Source of the DNA: Actinomycetota bacterium
GTDB lineage: Bacteria; Actinomycetota; Actinomycetes; JAKEEW01
Reading direction: 5' to 3'
Length of the DNA stretch: 41,407 bases
Assembly (NCBI GenBank): GCA_046725875.1
Contig: JBKOZJ010000164.1
Location: 1 to 41,407 of the forward strand
In this document: one piece after another, positions 4,530 to 39,790 of the stretch
Layout: every line of letters begins with the position of its first letter
How positions within the stretch are numbered: position 1 is the first letter of the stretch
Position numbers and translations under genes: made by a program
The notes under the pieces: model-generated
Told to the model about the DNA's origin: nothing
What the model saw: the letters and a program-made list of their open reading frames with translations, nothing else
The model's database searches: none

Positions 4530-5120
4530 CTAGACGTGCTCGGAGACGACGACGGCGACCGTGCCAGGCTCCAGCGCCCGGAAGATATGGGGCACGTCTC
4601 CGGGGTACGCGATGTAATCCCCCGGGTTCAGCTCGGCCGGATCGCCGGCGACACCGACGAGCGCCCGGCCTGCACTCAATATCACGTGCTCGACGACTCC
4701 GGGCATGTGCGGCTCGGACTCACGGGCGGAGCCCGGCTGCGCGCGGATGACGTAGACGTCCCGGCGGGCATTTGGCGGGCAGGACGAAAGCAGGGTAGCC
4801 ACGTAGTCGGACCGCTCGGACGCCACGGCCGGTCCTTCGCCTGCCCGGATGAGCTGCACCCTCGGGCGCCGCGGCTCCACTAGCCGAGAGAACGGCACAT
4901 CGAGTGCCACACCCAGCGCCCACAACGTTTCCACGCTGGGGTTCCCATTGCCGGCTTCGAGCTGGGACAACGTCGACTTCGCGACGCCGGCCCGCCGTGC
5001 GACCTCGGCCAGGGATAGCCCGGCCCGCCGCCGCTCCCGTTTCAGCGAGGTAGCGATCACGTCGAGGAGTGTCCCTCCCAGCTTCTCCCCGTCCCCGGTA
5101 TTGACCTTTACCTGCGCCAT
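4530..5120 (-). CDS. XRE-family HTH regulator with C-terminal cupin sensor
   Basis: SLAEVARRAGVAKSTLSQLEAGNGNPSVETLWAL HTH and SEPHMPGVVEHV...DVPHIF cupin. Divergent from azlCD. Confidence 0.92.
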   Translation of the reverse strand: MAQVKVNTGDGEKLGGTLLDVIATSLKRERRRAGLSLAEVARRAGVAKSTLSQLEAGNGNPSVETLWALGVALDVPFSRLVEPRRPRVQLIRAGEGPAVASERSDYVATLLSSCPPNARRDVYVIRAQPGSARESEPHMPGVVEHVILSAGRALVGVAGDPAELNPGDYIAYPGDVPHIFRALEPGTVAVVVSEHV

Positions 5121-5154
5121 GCTTCTCCGTCAGCCGTTCGTTTTACACTTCACA

Positions 5155-5222
5155 TCGTTCGCCTTGACGAACGACGCGGTCTTTGTCCAGTATAGAAGGC
5201 GATGCGTTCGATAAGGCGAACA
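5155..5222. promoter_or_regulatory. Two palindromic operators (CGTTCG-N6-CGAAC) and azlC promoter
   Basis: TCGTTCG-ccttga-CGAACGA at 5155-5174 overlaps TTGACG (-35, 5164-5169). CGTTCG-ataagg-CGAACA at 5205-5222 lies in the first azlC codons. An extra half-site CGTTCG is at 5135-5140. Confidence 0.65.
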
Positions 5223-5906
5223 CTCGGGCGGGAGCTGTCCCGCGACATCGCGCTGGTCTGTCTCGCGGACATGATCGTGGGCGTGTCGTTCGGAGCGATC
5301 ACGGTCGCCACTGACCTGCCATTGTGGCTTCCAACTCTGCTTTCCGTGGTGGTCTTTGCCGGCGCCGCGCAGTTCATATTCGTCGGCATCGTTGCTTCGG
5401 GCGGCAACCCGCTCGCCGCTATGGCCGCCGGGCTCCTCGTGAACGGGAGGCATGTGCCCTTCGGCTTCGCGGTCGCCGACGTGTTCGGCCGAAGCTGGCG
5501 GCGCCGGATCGCTGGAAGTCACCTAATGGTCGACGAGTCCGTGGCTTTCGCGCTCGCGCAATCTGACCCGCACCGACGCCGAGCGGCCTACTGGACATGC
5601 GGCACTGCCTTGTTCCTCTGCTGGAACGTCGGCGTCGTGCTCGGCGTCGCAGGTGGAAGCGTCGTAAACGACACCGACGCGCTCGGCCTCGATGCCGCGT
5701 TTCCCGCGGTACTCCTAGCGTTGGTCCTGCCATCGCTGCGCACCGGGCCGCGCATGCGCCGAGCCGCACTCGCCGGCGGCATCGTGGCGCTCGCGGCGGC
5801 GCCTTTCCTGCCTGCTGGTCTGCCCGTTCTCCTCGCACTCGCCGGCGTTCTCGCCGGCGTCGACGGAGTGACCAAGCCGGTCCCTAGTGCTGGAGTTAGC
5901 TCGTGA
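5202..5906 (+). CDS. azlC: AzlC family branched-chain amino acid exporter, large subunit
   Basis: GVSFGA, VVFAGAAQF, LLVNGRH, MVDESVAFA and GLDAAFPA motifs. Confidence 0.92.
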   Translation: MRSIRRTLGRELSRDIALVCLADMIVGVSFGAITVATDLPLWLPTLLSVVVFAGAAQFIFVGIVASGGNPLAAMAAGLLVNGRHVPFGFAVADVFGRSWRRRIAGSHLMVDESVAFALAQSDPHRRRAAYWTCGTALFLCWNVGVVLGVAGGSVVNDTDALGLDAAFPAVLLALVLPSLRTGPRMRRAALAGGIVALAAAPFLPAGLPVLLALAGVLAGVDGVTKPVPSAGVSS

Positions 5907-7314: not shown

Positions 7315-9009
7315 GTGGGGGTGAGCTTGGTGGCGGCCGACTGGGGCGCGGATGCGGCGGCGGCCGGCGGGCCGGACACGCCGCCGCCGCCGCGGCCGGA
7401 GCTGGAGGCCCTGGAGGCTGCGGTGTCGGTCGTGCTAGCCGGTGATCCGGGGCTGTGGGACGGCCGGTCGCTGGCCGACGAGGTGGCCCGGTTGGAGACG
7501 GTGATGGCCCGGCTGGCCGCCCGGCAGGTGGCCTGTGTCGCGGTGTTGGACGCCCGCGGCCACGCGCAGGGCTGGGGGTTCCGCTCCACCCAGGCGTGGC
7601 TGCGCGCCGCGGTCCGCATCGCGCCGGGCGCGGCGAAGGGCCTGCTCGGGTTGGCCCGGCGGCTGCACGGCAAGCAGGCCACCCCGGGCCGGGAGGCCAC
7701 CGCGGCGGCGTTCGCGGCGGGCCGGATCGGGGTGCCGCATGCGCAGCTGGTGACCCGGACGATGAGCGAGATCGGTGCGGTGTTCCCCGACCCCGAGCAG
7801 GCGGCCTGGATGGAGGCCGATCTGGTCGCGGTGGCCGAGCGGACCGACCCGCTGCGACTGGCCGGGGCCTGCCGGCGGCTGCGGATCGCGGCCGCCCCGG
7901 ACCGGGCGGTCGGCGACGACTGGGACGCCTTCGCCCGCCGGGAGTTGTCGATCGCGCAAACGTTCGGTGGGCTGGTCGCGATCCACGGAGTGCTGGACCC
8001 AATGGGCGGGGAGACCGTCGCCGCCGCCCTGCACGCGCTGTCCGCGCCGACCGGCGAGCCCGACGACCGGTCGCCCGGGCAGCGGCGCGCGGACGCGCTC
8101 ACCGAGATCTGCCGGCGGGTGCTCGCCGCCGGTGACCTGCCGCTGACCGGCGGGGAACGCCCGCAGGTCAACCTGACCGTCCCGGTCTGGGTGCTCGCCC
8201 GGCGGTGCACCGGCGGCCCGCCACCGCACGGCGACCCGATGGTCGGCGGATACCCGCACGGCAGGCCGCCCGCCGGCGACCGCGCCACCCCCGGCGGGAC
8301 CGACGGTCGGCCGCGCGACGGCACGACCGGTAACGGCATGCCCGACCCGCTCCCGGTCGCCGGTGGCGACGATCAGCGCGGCGACGGGCAGCCGCGCGAC
8401 GGCACGCCCGGTAACGGCGCGCCCGACCCGCTCCCGGTCGCCGATCCGGTCGCCGGTGGCGACGATCAGCTCGGCGACGGGCGGCCCGCGCCGTGGGATG
8501 ACGCTGACGCTCCGGCGGATCACGCCGACGGTCCGCGGGCGGGTGGACCGGTGCCGCCAGGACCACCGGGCCTGCCCTGGGACGGCGCCGCCGCAGAGAC
8601 CGGGGAGCTCGCCTGGGCCGGGCCGGTCTCCGATGAGCTGGTGCGCCGGATTCTGTGCGACGCTACCGTGCACCGGATCGTCGTCGACCCGGCGTCGCAG
8701 CCGCTAGACGTCGGCCGGGCCACCCGGGTGGTGCCGGCCGGGATGCGCCGGGCGGTCGCGCTGCGCGACCGGCACTGCCAGTGGCCCGGCTGCGACGTGC
8801 CCGCCGTCTGGTGTGAGGTCCACCACCTGCGTCACTGGAGCCGCGGCGGCCCCACCGCGGTCCACAACCTGGTCATGCTCTGCGGCCGGCACCACACCCA
8901 ACTCCACCTCGCGGGGATGATGCTCATCCGCCGCGCCCACGGACACATCGACCTCGCACCCGACCCCGACCACGACTACCACACCCACCACCCCGACCGC
9001 GGTCCCTAG
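7315..9009 (+). CDS. DUF222 (REP13E12-like) domain protein with C-terminal HNH endonuclease
   Basis: GFRSTQAWLR, DDRSPGQRRADAL, GGERPQVNLTV, RRILCDA, LDVGRATR, ALRDRHCQWPGC...CEVHHLRHWSRGGPTAVHNLVMLCGRHHTQLH. Start codon uncertain. Confidence 0.93.
   Translation: MGVSLVAADWGADAAAAGGPDTPPPPRPELEALEAAVSVVLAGDPGLWDGRSLADEVARLETVMARLAARQVACVAVLDARGHAQGWGFRSTQAWLRAAVRIAPGAAKGLLGLARRLHGKQATPGREATAAAFAAGRIGVPHAQLVTRTMSEIGAVFPDPEQAAWMEADLVAVAERTDPLRLAGACRRLRIAAAPDRAVGDDWDAFARRELSIAQTFGGLVAIHGVLDPMGGETVAAALHALSAPTGEPDDRSPGQRRADALTEICRRVLAAGDLPLTGGERPQVNLTVPVWVLARRCTGGPPPHGDPMVGGYPHGRPPAGDRATPGGTDGRPRDGTTGNGMPDPLPVAGGDDQRGDGQPRDGTPGNGAPDPLPVADPVAGGDDQLGDGRPAPWDDADAPADHADGPRAGGPVPPGPPGLPWDGAAAETGELAWAGPVSDELVRRILCDATVHRIVVDPASQPLDVGRATRVVPAGMRRAVALRDRHCQWPGCDVPAVWCEVHHLRHWSRGGPTAVHNLVMLCGRHHTQLHLAGMMLIRRAHGHIDLAPDPDHDYHTHHPDRGP
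8301..8480 (+). repeat. In-frame tandem duplication (81 bp and 93 bp units) in the DUF222-HNH linker
   Basis: DGRPRDGTTGNGMPDPLPVAGGDDQRG / DGQPRDGTPGNGAPDPLPVADPVAGGDDQLG. The second unit carries a 12-bp internal duplication. Confidence 0.9.
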
Positions 9010-11715: not shown

Positions 11716-12048
11716 CTATTTCGCGGGAAGTGAGCGCGCGTAAGCGATGCCGAGCTTCACCCACCTGGCCAGCTGCCGTTTGGTCTGGACGTCGTCGGCG
11801 TCCACCCGCAGCCAACCCTGCATTTCCCGGCCGCGCATCTCCATGGGGTGAGCGGTCGTCGACGCGGCGAGTGTTTCCGACTCGGCCGGATCCACCCGAA
11901 CTAGGACGCCACCCTGGCTGCTCGCCGCGACTGCCATGTTGCCGTGGATCATGAAGGCGAGACCGCCGAACATCTTCTTCTCGGACAGGCCCGGCTCGCC
12001 GCCGACGAGTTCGCGGATGCGGTTGGCGAGCTCCTTGTCGTACGCCAC
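11716..12048 (-). CDS. TfoX/Sxy N-terminal domain protein
   Basis: MAYDKELANRIRE..EKKMFGGLAFMIHGNM..MQGWLRV..YARSLPAK. Confidence 0.9.
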   Translation of the reverse strand: MAYDKELANRIRELVGGEPGLSEKKMFGGLAFMIHGNMAVAASSQGGVLVRVDPAESETLAASTTAHPMEMRGREMQGWLRVDADDVQTKRQLARWVKLGIAYARSLPAK

Positions 12049-12074: not shown

Positions 12075-12974
12075 TTAATCGGAGGCAGAGCGCAGGTACT
12101 GCGCGATCGCACTCAGGTCGGCTTGGCCGAAGCCGGCGGCGACGGCGCGGTCCACCGTCTCGCTGCTGGCCGACGCTTGTGGCATTGGGGCGCCGACCTG
12201 CCCCGCGAGGTCAAGGATCAGATCGTAGTCTTTCGCGACGAGGTCGAGGCTGAACGCTACCGGCGTCTCATCAGGCCGTTCGTACGCGGTCCGCTTATAG
12301 AGCACGAAAGGGGCGGCCGCAACGCTGGACGCGAACACCTCGTAGGCATCGGTCCGAGCGATGCCGGCTTTCTCGGCGAGCCCGAGTGCCTCCGAGATCG
12401 CCTGGTTGAGTGCGTGCACGATAGCGTTGATAGCAAGCTTCATCGCCGCGCCTGTGCCATGGTCGCCCATGTGGAAGATCCGCTTGGCGAGCAGGCCGAG
12501 TACGGGTCTTGCGATATCGAGTTCTTCGGCCCGGCCACCGGCCATGACCGTAAGCTCTCCGCGCTCGACCACGGGAACACTCCCGGAAACCGGGGTGTCG
12601 AGATGGCCGGCACCGGATTTCCCAACCAGTTGAGCCATTCGCTGGGCGGTCTGCGGGGCGATCGTGCTGGTGTCAGCTACGACGGTGCCGGGCTTCAGGC
12701 CTGCGACGATCCCGTCGTCACCGGCGTAGGTCTCCTCTACCGCGCGGTCGTCGGCAAGCGAGACCAAGATCACGTCGGCCAAGCCGGCTGCATCTCGCGC
12801 CGTGCCCGCCACGGTGCAGCCCGAAGCGGCGGCAATATCCGCGGCTCGGGCCCGTGTTCGGTTGAAGACCACGACAGCAGCACCCAGGGAACGCAGCCGC
12901 GTCGCCATCGCGGCGCCCATCCGGCCGGTGCCGACGACCGCGACCCCGACTCGGCCGGTCACGTCAGCAGCCAC
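12075..12974 (-). CDS. NAD(P)-dependent beta-hydroxyacid dehydrogenase (3-hydroxyisobutyrate DH family)
   Basis: VGTGRMGAAMA, DTSTIAP, LDTPVSGS, LTVMAGG, catalytic GAAMKLAIN and KD motifs. Alternative start GTG 12962 would give a GTGA overlap with the SDR stop. Confidence 0.92.
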   Translation of the reverse strand: MAADVTGRVGVAVVGTGRMGAAMATRLRSLGAAVVVFNRTRARAADIAAASGCTVAGTARDAAGLADVILVSLADDRAVEETYAGDDGIVAGLKPGTVVADTSTIAPQTAQRMAQLVGKSGAGHLDTPVSGSVPVVERGELTVMAGGRAEELDIARPVLGLLAKRIFHMGDHGTGAAMKLAINAIVHALNQAISEALGLAEKAGIARTDAYEVFASSVAAAPFVLYKRTAYERPDETPVAFSLDLVAKDYDLILDLAGQVGAPMPQASASSETVDRAVAAGFGQADLSAIAQYLRSASD

Positions 12975-13846
12975 CCGCCATCGACGTGCAAATGAACGCC
13001 GTTCACTGCCGGGTTGGACAGCAGGAACTCCACCGCATGTGCGATATCGCTCATCTTTGCCAGCCGTCCCAACGGCGTCCGGCTGATCACGTGATCCAGC
13101 GGTTTGCCTCTCCAGTAGGGGCTGTTCCCGACGATCCCCGGGTGGATCGCGTTGACCCGGATCGGCGCAAGCTCGGTCGCGAGCGTGTGAACCAGTCCGG
13201 TGATCCCTCCATTGACTGTCGACACTGTCGTCGAGCCCGGGTAGGGGCGGTCCTTCGCCAGCCCGCCGAAGAGGACGATCGCGCCATCATCCGGCATCCG
13301 ATCCACAAGCTGATGAACGACCTCGGTGTAGCCGACGAGTTTCAGCGTCACCAGCCGGACCGCACGCGCGATGTCGTAGTCGCGAACCGTGTTCGTATCC
13401 CGCTCGATAGCCGCGAGCACAAGATGGTCAACCCGCTCGATATCGGCAAGTCGGTCCCCGATCTGGGCAGGCTCGGCGAGGTCGAGGGATATCCCGCGAA
13501 CGGCAGGGAGGCTCTGGGTCGTGGCCCCCGTCGGCACCATTGGGGGATTCTGAGGGGTCGCCCCCCCTGTGGGCACCATGCCGGCGATTTCCTTCGCCAC
13601 CAGTTCGGCCCGTTCGGACGCTCGCCCGGTGATTGTCACCTCGTCGCCACGGTCGGCAGCTCGCTGGGCAAGCTCGCGCCCGATGCCGGACGTTCCACCG
13701 ATGACGAGCATCGACCTTCGGCCGCTGGTGGAGTCTGACAGAGTCGTCGCGCCGGCGAAGCCGGCGGCCGGGTCGGGGGCGTCCGTCCGCGCTGGTGGCT
13801 CGGCGCGGGGCTCGTGGGGGGTCGTCCCCCCTAGCTGCTCAGCCAT
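12959..13846 (-). CDS. Atypical short-chain dehydrogenase/reductase
   Basis: IGGTSGIG, ELAPIRVNAIHPG, TPLGR and NGVHLHVDGG. The canonical YxxxK position reads VSTVN. Confidence 0.88.
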   Translation of the reverse strand: MAEQLGGTTPHEPRAEPPARTDAPDPAAGFAGATTLSDSTSGRRSMLVIGGTSGIGRELAQRAADRGDEVTITGRASERAELVAKEIAGMVPTGGATPQNPPMVPTGATTQSLPAVRGISLDLAEPAQIGDRLADIERVDHLVLAAIERDTNTVRDYDIARAVRLVTLKLVGYTEVVHQLVDRMPDDGAIVLFGGLAKDRPYPGSTTVSTVNGGITGLVHTLATELAPIRVNAIHPGIVGNSPYWRGKPLDHVISRTPLGRLAKMSDIAHAVEFLLSNPAVNGVHLHVDGGWLLT

Positions 13847-14744
13847 CTCCGGTCACTGTCCTCAGGTAGTCCCAGTCCCGAGCGAAGCGGTAGGAGTGTC
13901 GCGACGGCGGCTGCGGCGACTGCGTTTCAAGCCAGCGCAGCGGTCCGCCGCCGAGGTTACGAAAGCCGTGTACGCAACCGACGCCAGCCCACGCCACGTC
14001 GCCCGGGCCGAGCGGGTAAACCTCGCCCTCGAAGGTTGCCTCTGCTACTCCCTCGAGGAAGTAGTACGTCTCCTCGAACGGATGATCATGCCGCCCAGCC
14101 ACACCATCCGGCGCGTACTGCACCATGAACATCGTCGTGAGGTCGGCCCCGAGATCCGAGTCGACCATCATCTTGACGGTGATGCCGCTGTACACGAGCA
14201 GGGCCGTGCGCGAGCTTGCCGACACGGCAAGCATTTCCTGGCTCTGCTTGGTGACGTCCATGTGGGCCGGGGTTATGTTGCCGAACCGCCTCGTCCGTGG
14301 ATCCCGTACATCCATCCGGACCGGGTCGCCGGCCGCGAGTGCGGGCACGAGCTGCGTGTCGTCGTCGCGCCGCGCTCGTGGCGTCGGCCCCTGCATTTCC
14401 GCCCACCGCGCCAGCTCCCGTCGCAGGTTGCGCCACTGATGAGGTACGCCCACCGGGAGCAGGCCGTAGTCGCCGGGCTCCACCTCGTGCGACCCGTCCG
14501 GAGTGTCCACGACCGCGGTGCCCTCCACGACGTAGAAGCTCTCCTCGAATGAATGGACGTGCGGCGGCAAGGAGCCACCGGGGGCGAGCTCGCAGATGCC
14601 GAAGCCGGTATGCACCGCGCCGGCCTCCTCGCCCACGACAGTCCACCTCTGGTATCCCTCGGCGCCGGCGGCCCAGGTGTCGGGTTTAGCGAAGTCCGCG
14701 TCGGCCGCCAGGCGCACGAGGTGGCCAGCCCGGAAAGCGCTCAC
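13839..14744 (-). CDS. Bicupin protein with two metal-binding motifs
   Basis: PHVHSFEESFYVVEG...GVPH and RHDHPFEETYYFLEG...GCVH. GTG at 14744 overlaps the amidohydrolase TGA (GTGA). Confidence 0.88.
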   Translation of the reverse strand: MSAFRAGHLVRLAADADFAKPDTWAAGAEGYQRWTVVGEEAGAVHTGFGICELAPGGSLPPHVHSFEESFYVVEGTAVVDTPDGSHEVEPGDYGLLPVGVPHQWRNLRRELARWAEMQGPTPRARRDDDTQLVPALAAGDPVRMDVRDPRTRRFGNITPAHMDVTKQSQEMLAVSASSRTALLVYSGITVKMMVDSDLGADLTTMFMVQYAPDGVAGRHDHPFEETYYFLEGVAEATFEGEVYPLGPGDVAWAGVGCVHGFRNLGGGPLRWLETQSPQPPSRHSYRFARDWDYLRTVTGDG

Positions 14745-16153
14745 GTCGCGGCAGCCTTGCGGCGGGCGGTCTCGGCGAGCAGGTAATCCCTGGACTCCTC
14801 TACAAGGCGCCGAGCCCGGTCGGTGTCCGCGACCAACCTGCCGTCGCGCTTGCGGAACTGCCCGTCGATGATCACGTTGTCGACGTTGGAGACGTCGGCG
14901 CACAGGGTCACCGCGGCGACCGGGTCGATTATCGGCGCGACGTTGAGCTGCCGGGCGTCGATGAGGACGATGTCGGCCTTCTTGCCCGGGGTGAGCGAGC
15001 CGGTTCGATCCTCGAGCCCGACTGTGTGGGCGCCGTTCACGGTGGCTATCTGCAACAGCTGGCGAGCGGTCAGCAGGCCTTCGGCCGGCTCGTTGCGCTC
15101 CCAGAACACTGCGTTCATCCGGGCGCGCTCAGCGCCGAAGGCAGCCCGCATCTGCGTGAACATGTCGCCGGGAACGGTCGTAACCACGTCGACCGACAGG
15201 CTCGGGCGCAGGCCGTACTCGATCGCCTTCATCACCGGCGGCCACCCGTGGCCCATCTGAGTCTCGACCTGGGGGGCAATGGAGATGGTTCCTCCGCTGT
15301 CGCGTACGAGCCTCCACTCCTCGTCGCTGAAGTAGCAGCAGTGGATATAGGTCGTGTCGGAACCAATCTCTTCGCCGATCAGACCGAGGCCGCTGAGCTG
15401 CTTGATCATCTCGAATCGCCCGGCGAGCCGGCCCATTCCGACGTGCACCGTGATCGGAATGCCGAGCTCGCGGGCGAGCCCCCACTCGGTGCGCACGACA
15501 TCCTCCAGGCAGAACCCGGGACCACGGGTTGCAAGGGCCATCGTGAGCAGGCCGTCGTCGGAGGAGAAGTACGTGTCCCGGATCCGCCGCACGTCGTCCG
15601 GTGGCACGCAGAGCTTGCTCTCGAACCAGTAGTCGGACAGCGACGTGTTCGCGCTGCCGTACGCATACTGCGCACGGATGCCGGACTCCCGCAACGCGCT
15701 GATCCCCGCATCCGGGTGGTCGGGCGTGTTGTTGATATGGGACCAGTCGACCAGCGTCGTGATGCCGGCGTTGATGCACTCCAGGGCACCGGCCAGGTTG
15801 GAGGCGTAGACATCCTCGGCTCGGTAGGCCGGTGCGAACGTGTCCAGCACCTCGACGAAGTAGTCGTCCAGAGTGGCGTCTGGTGCGCAGCCACGGATGG
15901 CCGTTTCCCAAACGTGGCGATGGCTGTCGATGAAGCCCGGGATCACGATGAATCCGCTGGCGTCGACCACGGCGGCGTCGACAGCGCCCGCGTCAACAGC
16001 ACCTGCGTCGCCGGCACTGGCCTCGGCTCCGATCTCGGGCTGAACTGCGACGATCCTGTCGTCCTCGATGAGAACGTCGCCCTGCGGCAAGTCTCCGATC
16101 GTCGGGTCCATCGACAGGACGGTGCCGCCACGGATAAGCGTCTTCGTACCCAC
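14741..16153 (-). CDS. Metal-dependent amidohydrolase (MTA/SAH-deaminase/AtzA-like clan)
   Basis: IPGFIDSHRH (HxH), AGITT, ITVHVG, YIHC, LSVDV, GDMF and GSLTPGKKADIV. AAGGAG RBS. Confidence 0.92.
   Translation of the reverse strand: MGTKTLIRGGTVLSMDPTIGDLPQGDVLIEDDRIVAVQPEIGAEASAGDAGAVDAGAVDAAVVDASGFIVIPGFIDSHRHVWETAIRGCAPDATLDDYFVEVLDTFAPAYRAEDVYASNLAGALECINAGITTLVDWSHINNTPDHPDAGISALRESGIRAQYAYGSANTSLSDYWFESKLCVPPDDVRRIRDTYFSSDDGLLTMALATRGPGFCLEDVVRTEWGLARELGIPITVHVGMGRLAGRFEMIKQLSGLGLIGEEIGSDTTYIHCCYFSDEEWRLVRDSGGTISIAPQVETQMGHGWPPVMKAIEYGLRPSLSVDVVTTVPGDMFTQMRAAFGAERARMNAVFWERNEPAEGLLTARQLLQIATVNGAHTVGLEDRTGSLTPGKKADIVLIDARQLNVAPIIDPVAAVTLCADVSNVDNVIIDGQFRKRDGRLVADTDRARRLVEESRDYLLAETARRKAAAT
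15960..16019 (-). repeat. Degenerate 15-bp in-frame repeat (AGAVD-like) in the amidohydrolase
   Basis: gcgtcgaccacggcg / gcgtcgacagcgccc / gcgtcaacagcacct / gcgtcgccggcactg, encoding SAGDAGAVDAGAVDAAVVDA. Confidence 0.75.
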
Positions 16154-16201
16154 ATGCAGCTCCTTTGCAGCTCCCCTGCATAACAGGGCCGGGAGGGTTG
16201 T

Positions 16202-18433
16202 TCAGTAGGCGGCCAGGCGCCGCGCGGCCTCGACCACCTTGTCGACGGTCGGGATGACCTGTTCTTCCAGCGTGTCCGCAAACGGCAGCGGCACGTTGGC
16301 CGCCGCGACCCGCTTGATCGGGGCGTCGAGCAGCTCGAACCCCTCATCCGCCACGACCGAGACGACCGTGGCGCCCCAGCCACCCTGGTAGGGGTTCTCC
16401 TCGACGACCATGAGCTTGGAGGTTCGGTCCAGTGAGCGCAGAACGGCCTCCACATCGAGCGGTATGAGACAGCGCAGGTCGAGCACCTCGACGGAGACGC
16501 CGTCCCGGGCGAGTTCCTCGGCAGCGGCGAGCGCAATTGGGACCGTCGCCGCGAGCGCCACGATCGTCATGTCGCTGCCCTCCCGGCGGACCGCGGCCCG
16601 GCCGAGCTCGATCACATGGTCCGGTGGCGCCGGCGCACCCTTGCTCGCGAGCAACCCCTTGTGCTCGAAGAAGATGACCGGGTCATCGCTGCGGATCGCG
16701 GCCGCCATCAGCCCGATCACGTCCGAGGGTGTGGACGGTGCCACGATCTTGAGGCCGGGGACGGTGAGGACCCAGTTCTCCACCGACTGGGAATGCTGAG
16801 CGCCGAATCCCAGGCCGCCGCCGTTTGCTGTACGGATGACCAGGGGCACGGTCACCTGCCCGCCGGTCATGTAGCGCACCTTCGGGATCTCGTTCGCCAC
16901 ATAGTCCCAGCAGCAGGCGAGAAAGTCGCTGAACATGATCTCCGCGACGGGCCGCGTGCCGGTCATCGCCGCGCCCATCGCGGCTCCGACGATCGCCTGC
17001 TCGGATATCGGCGTGTCCCAGATGCGGTTTGGGCCGAACTCCTGGAACAGCCCCACCGTCGTTTTGAACACACCCTCGGCCGCGCCGATGTCCTCGCCGA
17101 GGCAGACGACGCTCGGGTCGCGGCGCATCTCACGCGCGATGCCCTCGGCCACCGCCTCGCGATAGGTGATCGGCTCGGCCGGTTGATCTGAGTCGAGCGC
17201 GGCGGGGGCCGCGCCGGCGGGGCGCTCGGCATTGTCGGCGAGGACGCCCCCACTCGAGCTCCCCGTTGTTTGCCTCGCCGCGCCGGCGCGGGCTGCGGCG
17301 TCGCGGGGGGTGGATCCGCCCATCCGCCACTCCGCGCCACCGTCAGACCAAACGTCGGTGAACGCCTGCGCTGGATCAGGCCCCGGGGCGTTCTTGGCGG
17401 CATCGACTGCTTCGTCGACGATGCGAGCCGCCCGTTCGTCCGCATCGGCGATGTCCTCGTGCTTAACGCCAAGCGCCTCGAGGTGCGCTCGGGCGACCTC
17501 GAGCGGGTCGTGCTTGAGCCACCGCTCAACCTCTTCCCGCGGCCGGTACTTTGCCGGGTCGGCTCGGCTGTGCCCGAAGTGCCGGTAGGTCTGTGCCTCG
17601 ATCAGCGTCGGACCGCCGCCTCGCCGCGCACGGTCGACGGCGCGAGCGACCGCGTCCTTGACCACCACGACGTCGTTCCCGTCGATGATCTCCGCGGGCA
17701 TCCGATAGGCCTCGGCCCTATCGGCCGCGGGGTTTTCGGCGGCGGTAACGCTCCCGATCGGCGTGTACTCCATATAGAGGTTGTTCTCGCAGACGAAGAT
17801 GACGGGCAGCTCCCACACCGACGCGAGGTTGAGTGCTTCGTGGAACGCGCCGATGTTCGTCGCGCCATCGCCGAAGAAGGCGACCGCAACTTGGTGGCTG
17901 CCGCGCAAACGGGCCGACCATGCCGCACCGGCGGCCATCGGGAGATGCGATCCCACGATGGCGTACGACCCGAGCATGCTGACGGCCGCCTTGGTTAGGT
18001 GCATCGAGCCGCCCTTCGCCCGGCACAGCCCAGTCGCCTTGCTCATCAGTTCGGCGAGGCACTCCTCGGCGGAGGCGCCGCGGGCCATCGCATGATGATG
18101 ACCGCGGTAGGTCGCATAGACATAGTCGTCGGGTCGCAGAGCGCCGCTCGCGCCGACCGCAACCGCCTCGTGCCCCGCCGCAAGGTGGGTGGTGCCCTTG
18201 ACGAGGCCGGACATGAAGAGGTCGTGGGCGGCCTGCTCCGTGCGCCGGATCACCACCATCTGCTCGTAGAGCGCGAGGAGCTCATCCGGCCCGATGCTAG
18301 CCACCTGGGTCGTCCCGTTGTTCGGCTCCTCGCCACGGCTAGCCGCGCTTGCGTGGCGTCCGTACGAGGCCTTATCTGGTGCGGCATCGCCTGACGGGTG
18401 AGCACTGGGCTCGGAACGGGGTCCCTCGCTCAT
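16202..18433 (-). CDS. Fused TPP-dependent 2-oxoacid/acetoin dehydrogenase E1 alpha+beta
   Basis: Alpha half: TYRGHH, KGGSMH, GDGATN...ENN (TPP motif), YRHFGHS. Beta half: TYREAV, GEDIG, DTPISEQ, PVAEIMFSDF, GAQHSQ, DPVIFFEHK. The halves are joined by a ~50-aa Ala/Gly-rich linker. Confidence 0.92.
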   Translation of the reverse strand: MSEGPRSEPSAHPSGDAAPDKASYGRHASAASRGEEPNNGTTQVASIGPDELLALYEQMVVIRRTEQAAHDLFMSGLVKGTTHLAAGHEAVAVGASGALRPDDYVYATYRGHHHAMARGASAEECLAELMSKATGLCRAKGGSMHLTKAAVSMLGSYAIVGSHLPMAAGAAWSARLRGSHQVAVAFFGDGATNIGAFHEALNLASVWELPVIFVCENNLYMEYTPIGSVTAAENPAADRAEAYRMPAEIIDGNDVVVVKDAVARAVDRARRGGGPTLIEAQTYRHFGHSRADPAKYRPREEVERWLKHDPLEVARAHLEALGVKHEDIADADERAARIVDEAVDAAKNAPGPDPAQAFTDVWSDGGAEWRMGGSTPRDAAARAGAARQTTGSSSGGVLADNAERPAGAAPAALDSDQPAEPITYREAVAEGIAREMRRDPSVVCLGEDIGAAEGVFKTTVGLFQEFGPNRIWDTPISEQAIVGAAMGAAMTGTRPVAEIMFSDFLACCWDYVANEIPKVRYMTGGQVTVPLVIRTANGGGLGFGAQHSQSVENWVLTVPGLKIVAPSTPSDVIGLMAAAIRSDDPVIFFEHKGLLASKGAPAPPDHVIELGRAAVRREGSDMTIVALAATVPIALAAAEELARDGVSVEVLDLRCLIPLDVEAVLRSLDRTSKLMVVEENPYQGGWGATVVSVVADEGFELLDAPIKRVAAANVPLPFADTLEEQVIPTVDKVVEAARRLAAY

Positions 18434-19797
18434 CGGGTCTCACCATTCGATGTGGACTGGTCGGCGCTGCGGTTCTCCGCAGGGACCTGCTGGATTCTTG
18501 ACCCCCGATCGAGGTTCGACTGTGCTTCGCGCAGGGTGTTCAGCTGGCCGCCCGCGGTCCAGTACTTCCGGCCGGCGACGAGGAGCTCCTCGGCGGGGAA
18601 CTTGGTGATGACTTCGCATCCGTCCGCCGTGACGACAACCTCCTCCTCGATCCGCGCCGCCGACCAGCCGTCGGAAGCCGGCCAATAGGTCTCCAGCGCG
18701 AAGACCATGCCTTCCTCGAGCACTTCGGGATGCTCGAGCGAGACGAGCCGGCTGAAGATCGGCTTCTCCCAGATGGCCAGCCCGACTCCGTGGCCGTACT
18801 GCAACGCGAACGCGGCCATCTCGTCCGCGAAGCCAAACTCCTCGGCCCGCGGCCAGACCGACACTATGTCGGCGGTCGTCGCGCCCGGCTTGACCAGAGC
18901 GATTGCTTCGTCCATGTACTCGCGGCAACGAACGTAGGCGTCCCGCATCGCCGGGGATGCGCTCCCGACTGCGAAGCAGCGGTAGTAGCACGTGCGGTAG
19001 CCGAGATGGCTGTGCAGTATGTCGAAGAAGGCCGGGTCGCCGGGGCGGATGAGGCGGTCGGAGTGGACGTGCGGGTGCGGCGAGCAGCGCTCGCCGGAGA
19101 TGGCGTTGACGCCTTCGACGTACTCGCTGCCGAGGTCGTAGAGCACCTTGCTGACCAGGCCGACACATTCGTTCTCCCGCACCCCGGGGCGAAGGAACGC
19201 GTAGAGTTCCTCGTAGGCAGCGTCGACCATCGAGCACGCCTGGGTGAGAAGCGCGATCTCGTCCTGGGTTTTGATCCGGCGGGCCTCCAGGAAGACCTGC
19301 TGGCCGTCGACCACATCGAGACCTTCGGCGTGGAGCGCGGTGAGAACCGGCATTTCGACCACGTCGACGCCGACCGGCGCGTCCCCGAGACCGTGCTCAC
19401 GCAGGACCGTGCCTACCTTCGTCGCCACATCGGCGGCGACTCCCGCGCCGGGGTGGAAGGCCCCCCGCAGGGTGGAGATGCCGGCTCTGGCCCGCGCGGC
19501 ACCGTCCAGCCAGGGGTTGTAGAGCTGGTGGTGGCGGGCCGCGGAGCCGAAGTCCCAGACGTAAGGCTCGCCGCCGCGGGGAAGTAGCGCGAACCGGATC
19601 AGCTTGTCCATCGCCCACGTGCCGATGTGGGTGGCGGTCAAGTAGCGGATATTGGAGAAGTCGAAGGTGAGCAGCGCGCCGAGGTCGGACTCTTCGAGCT
19701 TGGAGCGCAGCCGGGCCAGCCGGTCCCGGCGGAGCCGATCGACGTCGATCCGCTCTTCCCAGTCGACCGCGTTGGGACCGTAGGTCTTGATCGCCAC
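18430..19797 (-). CDS. M24B (Xaa-Pro peptidase/creatinase fold) hydrolase, variant active site
   Basis: NIRYLT, EARRIKTQDEI, FFDILHSHLGYRTCYYR, YGHGVGL, ALETY and ARIEEEVVVT. The stop overlaps the E1 ATG (ATGA). Confidence 0.9.
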   Translation of the reverse strand: MAIKTYGPNAVDWEERIDVDRLRRDRLARLRSKLEESDLGALLTFDFSNIRYLTATHIGTWAMDKLIRFALLPRGGEPYVWDFGSAARHHQLYNPWLDGAARARAGISTLRGAFHPGAGVAADVATKVGTVLREHGLGDAPVGVDVVEMPVLTALHAEGLDVVDGQQVFLEARRIKTQDEIALLTQACSMVDAAYEELYAFLRPGVRENECVGLVSKVLYDLGSEYVEGVNAISGERCSPHPHVHSDRLIRPGDPAFFDILHSHLGYRTCYYRCFAVGSASPAMRDAYVRCREYMDEAIALVKPGATTADIVSVWPRAEEFGFADEMAAFALQYGHGVGLAIWEKPIFSRLVSLEHPEVLEEGMVFALETYWPASDGWSAARIEEEVVVTADGCEVITKFPAEELLVAGRKYWTAGGQLNTLREAQSNLDRGSRIQQVPAENRSADQSTSNGETR

Positions 19798-20120
19798 TGT
19801 TCGCCTTCCATCGTCAAGGCCCCTGGGGTGACCCCTTGGAAACCTGCGTCAAGAGGGCAGGGGAGCGACTCCTGGAACCCCCGCCCTACCTGCTGCCCGG
19901 TGTGACCGGAGCACCCCGATTCGTGCCGGGCGTTTCCAGCGTCGTCCGCCTGGTCCCTTTGGCGTACGTTGTTCAGCGTGACTTACCGCAGTTAAACGGT
20001 GGGCATCATGGGCCGTCAAGATGCTGCATCTGGCCTGATCCCACGACTTTGAGGAGCTCAGGCCAATACCCACAGCGGTAACGTTCACTTGACAGTGCGC
20101 TGCAGAGGGAGAGCGAACCA

Positions 20121-20963
20121 ATGAGCCCCACGGCGGTACCCGCGATCGGGGAGCGCCTGCGGAAGCAGCGGGTACGTCGCGGCATCACCGTACGCGGGCT
20201 CGCCCGGGACATTGGCGTCTCCGCCAGCCTCATCTCCCAGATCGAGACGGACAAGAGCCAGCCGTCGGTCAGCACGCTTTACGCGATCACGACCGCGCTC
20301 GGAATCTCGATCGAGGAGCTCTTCGACGTGGACGGATCGGGAGCACGCCCGGAGGCCGGTGCCGACGGTCATCGCGAACGCGGTCTGCTGACTGCGGCGC
20401 CCGGCCTGGCTGCCGTGCCTGGTCCGGGCGTCCCTGGAGCCATTGCCGCGCAGCAAGCAGACGAGCAGCAAGCAGACGAGCAGCAAGCAGACGAGCAGCA
20501 AGCAGACGAGCAGCAAGCGGAGGAGCTCGTCACGGTGGCGGGCGCTGGTGACTCGGGGCGGATTCCCGATGTTGCCGCCGCGCTCCGGCTGCGAAGGATT
20601 GAGTCCGAACGTGATCGCAGGGTCGGACCCGTTGTCCGCGCGGCCGAACGCGAGATGCTCACCCTTGACTCTGGGGTGGTTTGGGAGCGACTTGGTCAGG
20701 TGCCGGGGACGCACGTCGACTTCCTGCGCATCACCTACCAACCAGGCGGCACGTCGTCCAGCTCGGGGCAGCTCATGCGCCACCCGGGGACCGAGTACGG
20801 GCATCTGATCAGCGGCGAACTAGTCCTCACTCTGGCGTTCGATGAATACCGGCTCGTCTCCGGCGACTCGGTGTCGTTCAACTCGACGAGCCCGCATGGC
20901 TACCGGAACGAGGGAACCGAGCCCGCGGTAGGGATCTGGTTCGTCCTCGAGCGGCTCGACTAG
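20121..20963 (+). CDS. XRE-family HTH + cupin regulator, divergent from the catabolic operon
   Basis: [40 protein letters not shown] and MRHPGTEYG...STSPHGYRN cupin. Confidence 0.92.
20451..20525 (+). repeat. 15-bp tandem repeat (CAGCAAGCAGACGAG)x4 plus one variant, encoding QQADE
   Basis: Four perfect units at 20451-20510 and CAGCAAGCGGAGGAG at 20511-20525. Confidence 0.97.
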
Positions 20964-21101: not shown

Positions 21102-22298
21102 CTAGGTACTGCTGCCGGATTCGGCCTTTGGGTCTTCTCCTGTGGGGTTCTGCCCTACCGCCGCGAGGCTGGGATCCGTCACCTCGTATCGCCGTACATA
21201 GGTAGAGAGGAACGCCTGGAGGCTGGCCGCAATGGGGATGGCGATGAAGGCACCGATCGGGCCGAGCAGCAAGGCACCGGCAACGACCGCACCGAATGCG
21301 AGCGCCGGATGGATCTGCACGGTCCGTGAGGTGATCTTCGGCTGCAGGATGTAGTTCTCGAACTGCTGGTAGCACAGCATGAAGATGAAGATCCACAGCG
21401 CGTCGATCGGCTGCTCGGCGAGCGCGACGACAATCGGTACCAAGCCGGCCAAGTAGGTGCCGACGGTGGGGATGAACTGCGAGACCACGCCGACCCAGAT
21501 CGCCAGCGCGAGCGCGTTCGGGATGTCGAGTGCGAACAGCAGGATGTAGTGCGCGACGAAGGACACCAGCGCCATCAGTGCCCGCGAGTAGATGTAGCCG
21601 CCGGTCTTGTCGATGGCGATCTCCCATGCGCGCAGCACCTCGCCTTGGCGTGCCGGTGGAAAGAGCGAGACGACGTGCCGGCGGAACTGCGGACCCTCGG
21701 CAGACAGGTAGTAGGTAAAGAGCAGGATCGTGAAGAGCCGGAAGATGAACCCGATGACCGATGCGCCAAGGCCGAGCACGTTGGTCGCAATCTGCGACCC
21801 GTATCGCCCGAGGGTCGCGGAGTCCACGTTTATCCCGGACCGCAGGTCCTCGGATGACAGGTTGGTTCCGAAGGTGTTGTTGACCCACCTAATTACGCCG
21901 TCGATGTAGTCGGGCAGGTCCTTGGCGATGGTGTTGACCTCGCTGAAGAAAAGGCTGCCGAGGGCGAAGAAGAACCCGCCGAACAGAACGAATAGGACAA
22001 AGAAGACGATCAGGGTAGCTAGGCCGCGGCGCAGCCCCCGGCGGGCGAGCATGTTCACCGCAGGCTCGATCGCGAGCGCCAGGAAGAGCGAGAAAAGCAG
22101 CGATACGACCAGGCTCTGCAGGCGCTCGAACGCCCACTTACCGAGCAGGAAGGCCGCGACCCCGACGATCACGAAGACGATCAGCCGCGGGATCCACGGT
22201 GGCATTCCCCGCTGCCGCTGCATCGTCTCTTTAGGTGCCGGCAGTGCACCGAAATGTGGCGGCACGCCCGCCGCGTTCGTTCCTTCGCCGCTGGTCAT
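21102..22298 (-). CDS. AI-2E (PerM/TqsA) family transporter
   Basis: FLALAIEPAV, SQFIPTVGTY, YQQFENYILQPKI, IHPAL and LLGPIGAFIAIPIAA. Confidence 0.92.
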   Translation of the reverse strand: MTSGEGTNAAGVPPHFGALPAPKETMQRQRGMPPWIPRLIVFVIVGVAAFLLGKWAFERLQSLVVSLLFSLFLALAIEPAVNMLARRGLRRGLATLIVFFVLFVLFGGFFFALGSLFFSEVNTIAKDLPDYIDGVIRWVNNTFGTNLSSEDLRSGINVDSATLGRYGSQIATNVLGLGASVIGFIFRLFTILLFTYYLSAEGPQFRRHVVSLFPPARQGEVLRAWEIAIDKTGGYIYSRALMALVSFVAHYILLFALDIPNALALAIWVGVVSQFIPTVGTYLAGLVPIVVALAEQPIDALWIFIFMLCYQQFENYILQPKITSRTVQIHPALAFGAVVAGALLLGPIGAFIAIPIAASLQAFLSTYVRRYEVTDPSLAAVGQNPTGEDPKAESGSST

Positions 22299-38335: not shown

Positions 38336-38449
38336 CTTCGCTAGCCTCACCCGCTGGCAGCCGGGATGGGACCGAGCGGGGTGTCGGATCAGGAAGTTCC
38401 CTGACCCGACACTCGATTCCTACTCGGGTCCCGCGAGGTCTGGAGAGGC
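38336..38449 (+). promoter_or_regulatory. rpfB-1 promoter and structured 5' leader
   Basis: -10 TAGCCT (38342-38347). Nested stems GGGACCGAG/CTCGGGTCCC and GGGTGTCGGATCAGG/CCTGACCCGACACTC. CGAGGTCTGGAG SD block. Confidence 0.6.
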
Positions 38450-39532
38450 GTGCGACGTTCCCCGCTCCGCCTGTTCTTGCAGGGCGCGGTGATGACCGCT
38501 CTGGTCGGTGGAACTACTGCGTTCGCCAATCTCGACAAGGCCCTCGTGGTGAGCGTTGACGGTACGGAGAAGCAGGTTCACAGCTTCGCCAAGACCGTTG
38601 GTGACGTACTCGAGCATCAAGGCATCGAGGTCGGGCCGCACGACACGGTCGCGCCGGGCCGGGGCTCCCAGATTTCCGACGGAACCCGGATCGCGGTCCG
38701 CTACGGGAGGTTAGTCAGGGTGACGGTCGACGGCGAGCGGCGCGAGGCGTGGGTGACCGCGATCACCGTCGAGGAGGCGCTCGAGCAGCTCGGCGTGCGG
38801 GATCAAAGGGCCTTTGTGTCGGTTTCCCGGTCGGCACCGATCGGCCGACAAGGGCTCGCGTTCGACATCCGCCTGCCACATCGGGTGACCATCGACGTCG
38901 AGGGGAAGCGACACGCCGTCGCCACGACCGCCGCGACCGTCGCCGAAGCGATCGCGGCGGCCGGGATCGACCTCACTCGCAAGGATCTCGTCTTTCCGGC
39001 GAGGGACGTGTATCCGCAGGACGGCGATGTCATCAAGGTCTTCAAGATCCTGGGCAAGGTCGTCACCCGAACCGAGGCAATCCCGTACGAGACGAGGCAG
39101 GTCAAGTCCGCGGACGTCTATGTCGGGGATATCGAGGTCGGCCAGGCGGGCAGGGACGGCGAGAAGCGGATTACCTATGAGGTCGTCCGGAAGGACGGCG
39201 CATGGGTCACCAGACGCACACTCTTCACTGATGTGGTGAAGGAGCCGGTCGACCGGATCATCTGGATCGGTGCCACACCCTATCCGCTGACCGGTGTGGA
39301 AGACCTCAACTGGGCGGCGCTCGCCGAGTGTGAGTCGGGCGGAAACCCGCGCGCGGTGAGCGCAAATGGCCACTACGGGCTCTACCAGTTCTCGCTCGCG
39401 ACCTGGCAGTCGGTCGGTGGCAGCGGCAACCCGATCGACGCCTCGCCCGACGAGCAAACCTACCGCGCGCAGCTGCTTTACAACCGCGCCGGCGCGGGCC
39501 AGTGGAGCTGCGGGAGTCACCTCTTCGACTAA
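38450..39532 (+). CDS. rpfB: Resuscitation-promoting factor RpfB (ubiquitin-like DUF348 repeats + G5 + Rpf domain), copy 1
   Basis: Signal peptide, VSVDG/TVGDVL repeats, G5 region and NWAALAECESGGN..YGLYQFSLATWQSVGG. Confidence 0.93.
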   Translation: MRRSPLRLFLQGAVMTALVGGTTAFANLDKALVVSVDGTEKQVHSFAKTVGDVLEHQGIEVGPHDTVAPGRGSQISDGTRIAVRYGRLVRVTVDGERREAWVTAITVEEALEQLGVRDQRAFVSVSRSAPIGRQGLAFDIRLPHRVTIDVEGKRHAVATTAATVAEAIAAAGIDLTRKDLVFPARDVYPQDGDVIKVFKILGKVVTRTEAIPYETRQVKSADVYVGDIEVGQAGRDGEKRITYEVVRKDGAWVTRRTLFTDVVKEPVDRIIWIGATPYPLTGVEDLNWAALAECESGGNPRAVSANGHYGLYQFSLATWQSVGGSGNPIDASPDEQTYRAQLLYNRAGAGQWSCGSHLFD

Positions 39533-39660
39533 GCCGAAACGAGACCCCCACTGGGCTGTTTGAGTCCGCCATCCAGTGGTCTACGCGCCCCACTCGGGTG
39601 CTTTGAGATGACGTTTCGTGGCCGCCTGACTCCACTGTGGTGCTTGCGTCCGCTTTAGTC

Positions 39661-39790
39661 CTTCGCTAGCCTCCTGCGACTATTGGCCGGGATCGGGCAG
39701 TCCCGGGCGCGTTTGGGGTGGCTTCCCGCCGCTTTCATTGCGCCTGGATCAGCACTCCCCGTGCCCGGGAAGCACGAGGTCTGGAGTTAC
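39661..39790 (+). promoter_or_regulatory. rpfB-2 promoter and structured 5' leader
   Basis: Same CTTCGCTAGCCTC, GCCGGGAT and CGAGGTCTGGAG blocks as copy 1. Stems CGGGCA/TGCCCG and CCGGGCGC/GCGCCTGG. Confidence 0.6.

Follow-up and report, generated by a model that had tools for sequence, protein, structure and literature searches.

Which pathway do six consecutive genes serve when they encode enzymes of known folds and no named pathway fits them? The question is raised by a stretch of 41,407 nucleotides (nt) from an Actinomycetota bacterium (assembly GCA_046725875.1, contig JBKOZJ010000164.1, positions 1 to 41,407), which is called the window below. Six minus-strand genes, headed by those of an M24 ('pita-bread') enzyme and of an E1 enzyme dependent on thiamine pyrophosphate (TPP), stand there opposite a gene for an XRE-cupin transcription regulator. 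They are a real operon that recurs in many soil actinobacteria, and on balance we lean towards the reading that, governed by an XRE-cupin sensor-repressor, it encodes a peripheral route of catabolism for a small organic compound that most likely contains nitrogen and may be heterocycle- or ureide-like. We rate the locus as a catabolic operon built of known folds, in which three active sites are non-canonical in a conserved way and to which no pathway can be assigned.

The open reading frames (ORFs) of the window were listed and domain families were assigned with Pfam and NCBIfam, 34 ORFs being scanned for domains. Six consecutive minus-strand genes fill positions 12075-19797, and a plus-strand gene at 20121-20963 faces them. 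In the order of transcription, the six encode the M24 enzyme, of what we call the Cys-type subfamily (18430..19797, 455 amino acids (aa)); the TPP-dependent E1, with its α and β parts fused (16202..18433, 743 aa); an amidohydrolase of the ATZ/TRZ-like branch, family NF006056 (14741..16153, 470 aa); a bicupin (13839..14744, 301 aa from a GTG start); an atypical short-chain dehydrogenase/reductase (SDR; 12959..13846, 295 aa); and, last, an accessory β-hydroxyacid dehydrogenase (12075..12974, 299 aa). The divergent gene (20121..20963, plus strand, 280 aa) encodes the regulator, with HTH_3 and Cupin_2 domains. Read on the minus strand, ATGA at 18430-18433 joins the M24 stop to the E1 start, GTGA at 14741-14744 the amidohydrolase stop to the bicupin start, ATGGCTGA at 13839-13846 the bicupin stop to the SDR start, and GTGGCTGCTGACGTGA at 12959-12974 the SDR stop to the dehydrogenase start; an internal GTG at 12962 is an alternative dehydrogenase start that would create a second GTGA overlap. 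The fifth junction is a 48-nt spacer containing a Shine-Dalgarno sequence (AAGGAG) ahead of the amidohydrolase start. The third-codon-position G+C of all six genes (0.77-0.87) is high, as in real genes, in DNA of 67% G+C. An earlier note on this DNA had described six co-oriented genes with four of five junctions overlapping, and the ORF listing and the junction letters are exactly as it stated. Each of its family calls was confirmed by Pfam and NCBIfam, including the divergent XRE-cupin regulator, and no transporter was found among the six genes with these profiles, as it had also remarked. It had placed the bicupin start at the GTG at 14744; the longest ORF extends to 14903, but conservation among 67 homologues begins only at about residue 61 of that long ORF, so that 14744 is the right start.

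Is this arrangement a peculiarity of one genome? A scan for the M24 pattern, with one genome per species, returned at least 599 matches, and 565 of those listed encode an M24 relative. The best 80 of these 565 loci were fetched with 10-kb flanks and searched by tblastn with the window proteins. Gene counts are given for the 69 loci whose sequence continues for 7 kb or more downstream of the M24 gene, and only genes on the same strand in the same order were counted. E1α was present in 58 of these loci, E1β in 63, the amidohydrolase in 65 (after E1), and the bicupin and the SDR in 66 each. The M24 gene and all five of these core partners were found together in the same order in 54 out of 69 loci, a recurrence across many genera that is far beyond chance. 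The earlier note had staked its proposal on the genes being conserved together, and this is what the related loci show. The hydroxyacid dehydrogenase, retrieved in 34 of the 69, is an accessory gene. The carriers include 32 Streptomyces loci (of the 80), Nocardioides, Actinomadura, Phytoactinopolyspora, Virgisporangium, Actinophytocola, Phytohabitans, Thermopolyspora, Pedococcus, Nakamurella and many metagenome-assembled genomes (MAGs). An XRE-cupin homologue was located within 2.5 kb upstream of the M24 gene in 72 of the 75 loci with upstream sequence (35 divergent, 37 co-directional).

Conservation is uneven along the operon. The M24 enzyme is the best-conserved product, with a median identity of 84% between the window and 79 loci, followed by E1β (81%), E1α and the amidohydrolase (72% each), the bicupin (64%), the hydroxyacid dehydrogenase (58%), and the SDR and the regulator (56% each). 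This gradient suggests long co-residence under differing constraints or selection rather than a recent wholesale transfer. No other gene family was found to accompany the operon consistently among the related loci. A TfoX_N ORF at 11716-12048 on the same strand, which begins 26 nt past the last operon gene, was considered as a seventh member; none of the 80 related loci contains a homologue of it, and it therefore lies outside the conserved set. Neighbours shared among Streptomyces loci (a SAM methyltransferase, DUF4916, a ferritin-like protein, TauE, a GlnA-like protein with Amidohydro_2, and a thiolase) were rejected as members and attributed to lineage synteny. A 2-kb contig labelled as a Gemmatimonadetes MAG carries an 82-83% identical M24 gene with an XRE-cupin gene upstream, which may reflect a binning error rather than transfer.

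What chemistry could the first enzyme perform? It belongs to the M24 fold (PF00557, E 1.5e-37, 129.8 bits vs a gathering threshold of 23), which is known for the cleavage of C-N bonds, or of a C-S bond in DddP, and whose canonical metal motif is Asp, Asp, His, Glu and Glu. Alignment to the DddP structure 4s00 predicts D259, C270, H336, E369 and E384 as ligands, and the canonical five-ligand dinuclear site is thus incomplete, its second Asp being Cys270. This Cys, within the motif GYRTCYYR, is present in 81 out of 81 homologues, including plasmid variants and a 57%-identical Phaeobacter protein. The Cys also occurs in 42 of 51 full-length proteins that represent 50%-identity clusters, at identities as low as about 32%; the remaining nine comprise four with Asp and five that are misaligned or look frameshifted. 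These proteins therefore make up a large Cys-type M24 subfamily. A search of all libraries yielded 610 clusters at E <= 1e-30, and the ESM Atlas returned only unnamed M24 clusters, from Acidobacteriota, Chloroflexota and Actinomycetota. The family around the window protein is unusually tight: the best 120 of 8000 scored homologues are 83-100% identical and come from different genera and orders. Neither a solved structure of the Cys-type in the PDB search nor a curated name in NCBIfam was found.

The nearest characterised and solved relative is DddP (4s00, 4b28), an M24 enzyme that is not a peptidase and has two irons in its metal site. It is both the best NCBIfam match (NF043017) and the best PDB match (4s00, 97 bits, aligned over residues 18-406 and thus nearly full length). 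This raises the question of whether the M24 protein is a DddP-type lyase of dimethylsulfoniopropionate (DMSP), with the operon serving DMSP or acrylate. The bicupin also matches cupin DMSP lyase models, weakly. However, the M24 protein scores 130.4 bits against the DddP cut-off of 600, and the Asp that bridges the metals in DddP is Cys in the window enzyme. In the structural work on DddP, the metal ligands D295, D297, D307, H371, E406 and E421 are described as invariant, as are the proposed catalytic residues Tyr366 and Asp377 (PMC4108388). Measured against these residues, the 4s00 alignment gives D259, a gap, C270, H336, E369 and E384, so four of the six ligands are kept; Y366 corresponds to Ala328 and D377 to a gap, the stretch being gapped and the Tyr position less certain than the Asp position. 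With two ligands and both proposed catalytic residues missing, a DddP-type function is effectively refuted by sequence, and we find it scarcely credible.

Which partner is most closely tied to this M24 enzyme? The E1 protein contains E1_dh (7.6e-75), Transket_pyr (2.5e-42) and Transketolase_C (2.7e-33) in a single chain, with an intact TPP motif (GDG188-190...NN217-218). Its β part passes NF006667 (337 vs 321 bits) and is closest in the PDB to the Thermus BCKDH E1β, whereas its α part, closest to the human PDH E1α, remains under the PDH E1α equivalog TIGR03182 (337.8 vs 393.85 bits). The two parts are joined by a low-complexity linker rich in Ala, Gly and Pro (about residues 371-418), an in-frame insertion that is not kept in homologues. 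In at least 51 of the 80 loci, α and β lie in different frames with stops between them and are thus split; one continuous fused match was obtained only in L006, the nearest relative, and the other loci gave α only (6), β only (11) or none (11) by the thresholds used, or were truncated. A small clade of fused E1 proteins of 690-695 aa is 80-81% identical to that of the window, and databases contain many fused E1αβ chains (E <= 1e-50 for 7220 of 8000 scored candidates of 408-1301 aa). The fusion therefore stands as an observation, but as a common form that is split in most relatives it does not make this E1 atypical, as had been proposed; it is lineage-specific rather than a property of the gene system.

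The earlier note had also called the E1 unusual for lacking E2 and E3. Locally this is true, since none of the 34 window ORFs scanned showed a lipoyl, 2-oxoacid_dh or Pyr_redox domain; where the M24-E1 pair has relatives, in contrast, these are followed by genes for E2, a lipoyl protein and LpdA. The window E1 shares its three domains and TPP motif with the E1 enzymes of acetoin and 2-oxo-acid dehydrogenases (AcoAB-type, PDH and BCKDH E1αβ). It differs from them in the missing E2 and E3, in the α score under the PDH cut-off and in that a Cys-type M24 gene always precedes the window-type E1; classical 2-oxo-acid dehydrogenase complexes are not known to have such a gene ahead of them.

Variants outside the chromosomal operon were informative in this respect. 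A close M24 relative (E <= 1e-60) was present in 26 of 72,556 plasmid records. A Phaeobacter inhibens plasmid (L082, 7270-18303) encodes the 57%-identical Cys-type M24, and on Phaeobacter and other roseobacter plasmids the order is solute-binding protein, SDR, M24, E1α, E1β, lipoyl protein, succinate-semialdehyde dehydrogenase (SSADH), E2 and LpdA, a set in which the module seems to take the form of a full dehydrogenase complex. The Streptomyces YIM 121038 plasmid carries an oxidoreductase, M24, SSADH, a VOC protein, a fused E1αβ (on a Streptomyces plasmid, the RefSeq label of the fused E1 is 'alpha-ketoacid dehydrogenase subunit alpha/beta'), E2, a flavin reductase, an LLM oxygenase and ABC permeases. 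In Paenarthrobacter sp. R1 (L081, plasmid positions 8782-14464), the order is XRE-cupin, RidA, M24, HIBADH-like oxidoreductase, an atypical SDR 51% identical to that of the window, and LpdA. P. ureafaciens SD-1 (L084, plasmid positions 5447-11030) combines RidA, a cupin regulator, an enoyl-CoA hydratase, an oxidoreductase, M24 and a flavin reductase. Taken together, the plasmid variants indicate a stable core made up of the Cys-type M24 and, in most cases, E1αβ and an oxidoreductase of the HIBADH family. The M24 and the TPP E1 (α and β) are the oldest and tightest unit, in a linkage that extends across phyla, and the amidohydrolase, bicupin and SDR are an actinobacterial elaboration.

These complexes bear on a reading that we regard as unlikely, although it deserves to be weighed: an acetoin-dehydrogenase-like pathway for cleavage of an acyloin or 2-oxo acid, in which nitrogen is no essential part. 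The M24 enzyme would then only unmask the substrate, the E1 with host E2 and E3 would yield an acyl unit and an aldehyde (such as succinate or malonate semialdehyde), and the hydroxyacid dehydrogenase or SSADH would convert the aldehyde released. The roseobacter and Streptomyces plasmids, which join M24 to E1α/β, E2, lipoyl protein, LpdA and 'NAD-dependent succinate-semialdehyde dehydrogenase', are consistent with it, as are the PDH/BCKDH-like E1 with its intact TPP motif and the HIBADH-family oxidoreductase, which accompanies M24 both in the variants and in 34 of 69 chromosomal loci. However, E2, E3 and an aldehyde dehydrogenase are all missing from the actinobacterial operon, an ATZ/TRZ-type amidohydrolase is present in 65 out of 69 loci, RidA accompanies M24 in two variants, and the M24 fold is known for C-N cleavage or, in DddP, C-S cleavage.

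Does the amidohydrolase support a C-N hydrolytic step? The protein matches Amidohydro_1 (PF01979, E 3.2e-34, 119 bits) and passes NF006056 (615 bits vs a cut-off of 391), a family named only 'hypothetical protein'. Its metal ligands H78/H80, H237, H271 and D322 (HxH, His, His, Asp) are kept and constitute a mononuclear site. This site is shared with the ATZ/TRZ-like deaminases, such as 8-oxoguanine deaminase, atrazine chlorohydrolase and MTA/SAH deaminase, and the best PDB matches are 3hpa, 4v1x and 7ww2. Amidohydrolases of the deaminase branch carry a catalytic Glu three residues past the β5 His (HxxE). Unlike them, the window protein reads H237-V-G-M240, with the Met kept in 70 homologues and thus throughout the orthologue group, and its family has no functional name; the HLAE of 3hpa at the HxxE place stands opposite a gap in the alignment. 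The amidohydrolase is therefore also atypical, a point missing from the earlier note. An in-frame (AGAVD)-like repeat in its N-terminal loop (window positions 15960-16010) is not kept in homologues.

More distant NF006056 relatives occur elsewhere. A protein of about 40% identity is encoded on pBB2 of Cupriavidus necator N-1 (L086, 6992-12254) with a two-domain VOC dioxygenase, a fumarylacetoacetate-hydrolase (FAH)-family protein and a transporter, to which NTF2, YciI and a HIBADH-like oxidoreductase are added; another of about 40% identity lies on a Rhodococcus qingshengii plasmid (L087, 6947-11744) with a two-domain VOC dioxygenase, a FAH hydrolase and a transporter. For that branch of NF006056, these clusters suggest an aromatic ring-cleavage context, while the other contexts of the family are heterogeneous and uninformative. 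They also bear on whether the operon is a module for catabolism of an aromatic amine, aminophenol or quinone imine, in which the amidohydrolase would remove the aryl amino group, the bicupin would be a ring-cleaving dioxygenase, and M24 and E1 would process the ring-fission product. The VOC, FAH and HIBADH-like neighbours of these NF006056 relatives speak for this scheme, and bicupins include gentisate- and salicylate-type dioxygenases, which are present among the structural matches given below. On the Paenarthrobacter sp. R1 plasmid, moreover, M24, XRE-cupin, RidA, atypical SDR and LpdA genes adjoin the sulfonamide-degradation genes sadB and sulR, and a second M24 copy adjoins a flavin reductase. 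This adjacency is found on plasmids rich in insertion sequences and may be a coincidence of cargo; the available portions of two papers on the sad cluster (PMC11446756, PMC6868719) do not mention window-type genes. The Paenarthrobacter plasmid variants also lack the bicupin, the amidohydrolase and E1, the operon itself has no hydroxylase, maleylacetate reductase or FAH-type hydrolase, and the heterogeneity of the other NF006056 contexts weakens the argument further. We consider this reading quite improbable. One Paenarthrobacter strain carries two M24 copies on two plasmids.

The remaining enzymes were examined in the same manner. The bicupin matches Cupin_2 in two stretches (8.5e-30, Pfam), and the HxH...E...H set is complete in both barrels (H62/H64/E68/H102 and H219/H221/E225/H259). 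A Foldseek search with its AlphaFold2 model (pLDDT 84.2, pTM 0.85) returned quercetinase, ureidoglycine aminohydrolase-like proteins, oxalate decarboxylase and salicylate dioxygenase at the top, with TM scores of about 0.58-0.65 and 15-18% identity. Against the NCBIfam ura-cupin model, the protein scores 27 bits (cut-off 200). The SDR matches adh_short_C2 (7.7e-25, Pfam) and reaches 144 bits against the NF005449 cut-off of 257. Its nucleotide-binding motif GGTSGIG (residues 50-56) is present, whereas the Ser/Tyr/Lys triad is not: G195, V208 and N212 occupy the corresponding positions of CBR4 (4cql), a pattern kept in 70 homologues. Among PDB entries, the closest is 3uce, which shares this triad-less type and is named only 'Dehydrogenase'. 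A conserved stretch, KLVGY (residues 169-173), might speculatively supply substitute residues. A duplicated MVPTG... stretch at SDR residues 90-111 is a lineage insertion, not kept in homologues. The last protein, of the HIBADH/tartronate-semialdehyde-reductase family, looks canonical: NAD_binding_2 (9.2e-40) and NAD_binding_11 (6.6e-20) are matched, and GTGRMG and K179 (AAMKLAIN), the Lys that is catalytic in β-hydroxyacid dehydrogenases, are present. Its best NCBIfam model is TIGR01505, tartronate semialdehyde reductase (174 bits vs a cut-off of 341).

None of the six proteins as such reached an NCBIfam equivalog that carries a name, the only family passed by a whole protein being the unnamed NF006056, and PDB relatives are remote for the M24, amidohydrolase, bicupin and SDR. 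Three of the six enzymes had been said to deviate from their family pattern. This is correct for M24 and the SDR, but not for the fused E1, which is no feature of the system.

How would such an operon be controlled? The regulator combines HTH_3 (2.2e-13) and Cupin_2 (3.3e-15) domains by Pfam and has a weak PuuR-like NCBIfam match (77 bits vs a cut-off of 211). A 15-bp tandem repeat within its gene (20450-20526, 5.1 copies, 96% matches) encodes (QQADE)4, a lineage-specific linker between the HTH and cupin domains; the protein has 280 aa, compared with a median of 224 aa for the regulator ORFs of related loci. The divergent intergenic region (19798..20120, 323 bp between both start codons) is the presumed promoter and operator. 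A GGAAGG lies 6 nt ahead of the GTG start of the M24 gene. No sigma-70 consensus was detected in the intergenic region, where the promoter scan gave 0 promoter-like sites, and the three terminator-like sites found, vs 3.5 expected, were not informative. A search for an operator inverted repeat in 19780-20140 was negative, and k-mer counts over 79 upstream regions returned only words from Streptomyces coding sequences.

The surroundings of the operon in the window are those of an ordinary actinobacterial chromosome, with pst genes, a protein O-mannosyltransferase, MetRS, TatD and two RpfB-like genes. Past the regulator lies an AI-2E family transporter gene (21102-22298), common only to the closest relative locus, L006. 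A second XRE-cupin regulator belongs to a divergent gene pair (4530-5129 on the minus and 5196-5906 on the plus strand), together with a gene for an AzlC-family branched-chain amino-acid exporter. A DUF222 and HNH endonuclease gene (7315-9009, plus strand) lies in a patch of 74-76% G+C, compared with 65-68% for the window. The RpfB-like genes (38405-39532 and 39659-40936, plus strand) stand in tandem after MetRS and TatD and encode three DUF348 domains, G5 and a transglycosylase.

Does the gene set resemble a pathway that has been described? A full-text literature search, which covers neither subscription papers nor supplements, returned no published description of it. That no named pathway could be matched, as the earlier note had concluded, still holds: no curated family, solved structure or paper assigns one, and neither the NCBIfam comparisons, the distant PDB relatives nor the literature place close homologues in a characterised pathway. 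The best available analogy is the lumichrome (riboflavin) pathway of Nocardioides simplex. There, ring opening and urea hydrolysis come first, a 52-kDa enzyme then hydrolyses an amidine, and the α-keto-acid-like heterocyclic acid that results is decarboxylated with the help of TPP, the enzymes being the hydrolases LumH/I/M and the TPP decarboxylase LumK/L (PMC12746152). As described there, that operon too is actinobacterial and combines a C-N hydrolase, an amidohydrolase and then a TPP enzyme. It differs in its 25 genes, among them those of a P450, a xanthine oxidase and two dioxygenases (Rieske and extradiol), and its TPP enzyme is described as a two-subunit decarboxylase of 20+23 kDa, not an E1αβ; 'M24' does not occur in the main text of the paper (PMC12746152). 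P450, xanthine oxidase, Rieske dioxygenase and small two-subunit TPP decarboxylase domains were not detected in the window ORFs scanned. Identity with the lum operon was thus rejected on gene content, the two having been likened by the description available rather than by sequence.

In the allantoin/glyoxylate regulon of Escherichia coli (AllB, AllC, AllE/YlbA, Gcl and GlxR), an amidohydrolase occurs together with a hydrolase of a peptidase fold, a bicupin, a TPP enzyme and a reductase of the HIBADH family. The window operon resembles it in family composition, an analogy that serves as a lead only. YlbA and ureidoglycine aminohydrolases are among the structural neighbours of the bicupin, and the best model for the last enzyme is tartronate semialdehyde reductase. 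However, no protein is orthologous, all scores lying far under the cut-offs; the peptidase fold in the window is M24 rather than M20, and the TPP enzyme is E1-type rather than Gcl-type.

How, then, might the operon work? In the proposed sequence, the cupin domain of the regulator would bind the substrate or an intermediate and the operon would be de-repressed. The M24 enzyme would cleave a C-N (or similar carbon-heteroatom) bond with its modified metal site D259/C270/H336/E369/E384, and the amidohydrolase would carry out a second hydrolytic C-N step, a deamination or ring opening, without the usual HxxE Glu. The resulting 2-oxo-acid-like or acyloin-like intermediate would be decarboxylated or cleaved by the E1, which could borrow host E2 and E3 or act alone as a decarboxylase or lyase. 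The two-metal bicupin would perform an oxygen- or metal-dependent cleavage or isomerisation, and the atypical SDR and, where present, the hydroxyacid dehydrogenase would adjust the redox state of C2-C4 products. Nitrogen in the substrate is suggested, not proven, by the enzyme families (M24 and ATZ/TRZ-like, both hinting at C-N chemistry), by the RidA genes beside M24 in two Paenarthrobacter plasmid variants and by the PuuR-like regulator. The earlier proposal of a pathway for a nitrogen-containing compound has thus gained a co-conserved enzyme set and regulator, while its nitrogen still derives from the enzyme families.

A scheme in the opposite direction would have the genes form a biosynthetic cluster for a small signalling or specialised metabolite, made by TPP-dependent carboligation. 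E2-less E1 and DXS-like enzymes can ligate, several active sites are non-standard and there is no uptake transporter in the operon. The conserved set, however, contains no ligase, nonribosomal peptide synthetase, polyketide synthase, methyltransferase or exporter; a substrate-sensing XRE-cupin regulator and a hydrolase-rich content are typical of catabolism, and relatives adjoin solute-binding proteins and ABC importers. We therefore hold a biosynthetic role to be very unlikely.

Several observations nevertheless weigh against a catabolic route for a nitrogen-containing compound. All family assignments are at the superfamily level, with no substrate-specific evidence, and neither the operon nor the scanned window ORFs supply a transporter, E2 or E3; because the operon lacks all three, it is doubtful that the pathway is self-contained, as it had been called. 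E1 is wholly missing in 5 of 69 loci. The amidohydrolase is uncertain as a deaminase because it lacks the Glu used by its deaminase relatives, the near-equal Foldseek matches of the bicupin model assign no specific reaction class, and the SDR may have no catalytic activity. A nitrogen-free acyloin or 2-oxo acid as substrate would fit the variants with SSADH, E2 and E3 equally well, and plasmid variants adjoin a flavin monooxygenase and sulfonamide-degradation genes, which point to aromatic-amine chemistry instead.

As a bolder possibility, which we put forward only tentatively, the operon may represent an undescribed catabolic pathway, widespread in soil Actinomycetota, that dismantles a natural nitrogen heterocycle. 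A new functional class of M24 enzymes, large, with Cys in place of the bridging Asp and no characterised or crystallised member, would act there in obligate tandem with an E1 freed from E2 and E3, alongside an amidohydrolase without the Glu, a bicupin with two metals and an SDR without the triad. The substrate might, for instance, be a ring that derives from a cofactor or is ureide-like, and one of the steps could be a TPP-dependent decarboxylation of a heterocyclic acid.

At least several hundred actinobacterial species, many of them Streptomyces, and many soil metagenome contigs carry the operon. The motif GY[RK][TS]C[YV]YR provides a simple marker for mining the Cys-type M24 family, and the link to plasmids of sulfonamide degraders may matter for how such degraders complete mineralisation. 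No enzyme of the operon has a named function, and three depart, in a conserved manner, from the catalytic rules of their families; solving the pathway would therefore probably yield a new reaction of the M24 fold. It would probably also clarify the role of E2-less E1 enzymes and add a missing route to the soil carbon and nitrogen cycle, possibly one for the breakdown of a cofactor or another heterocycle.

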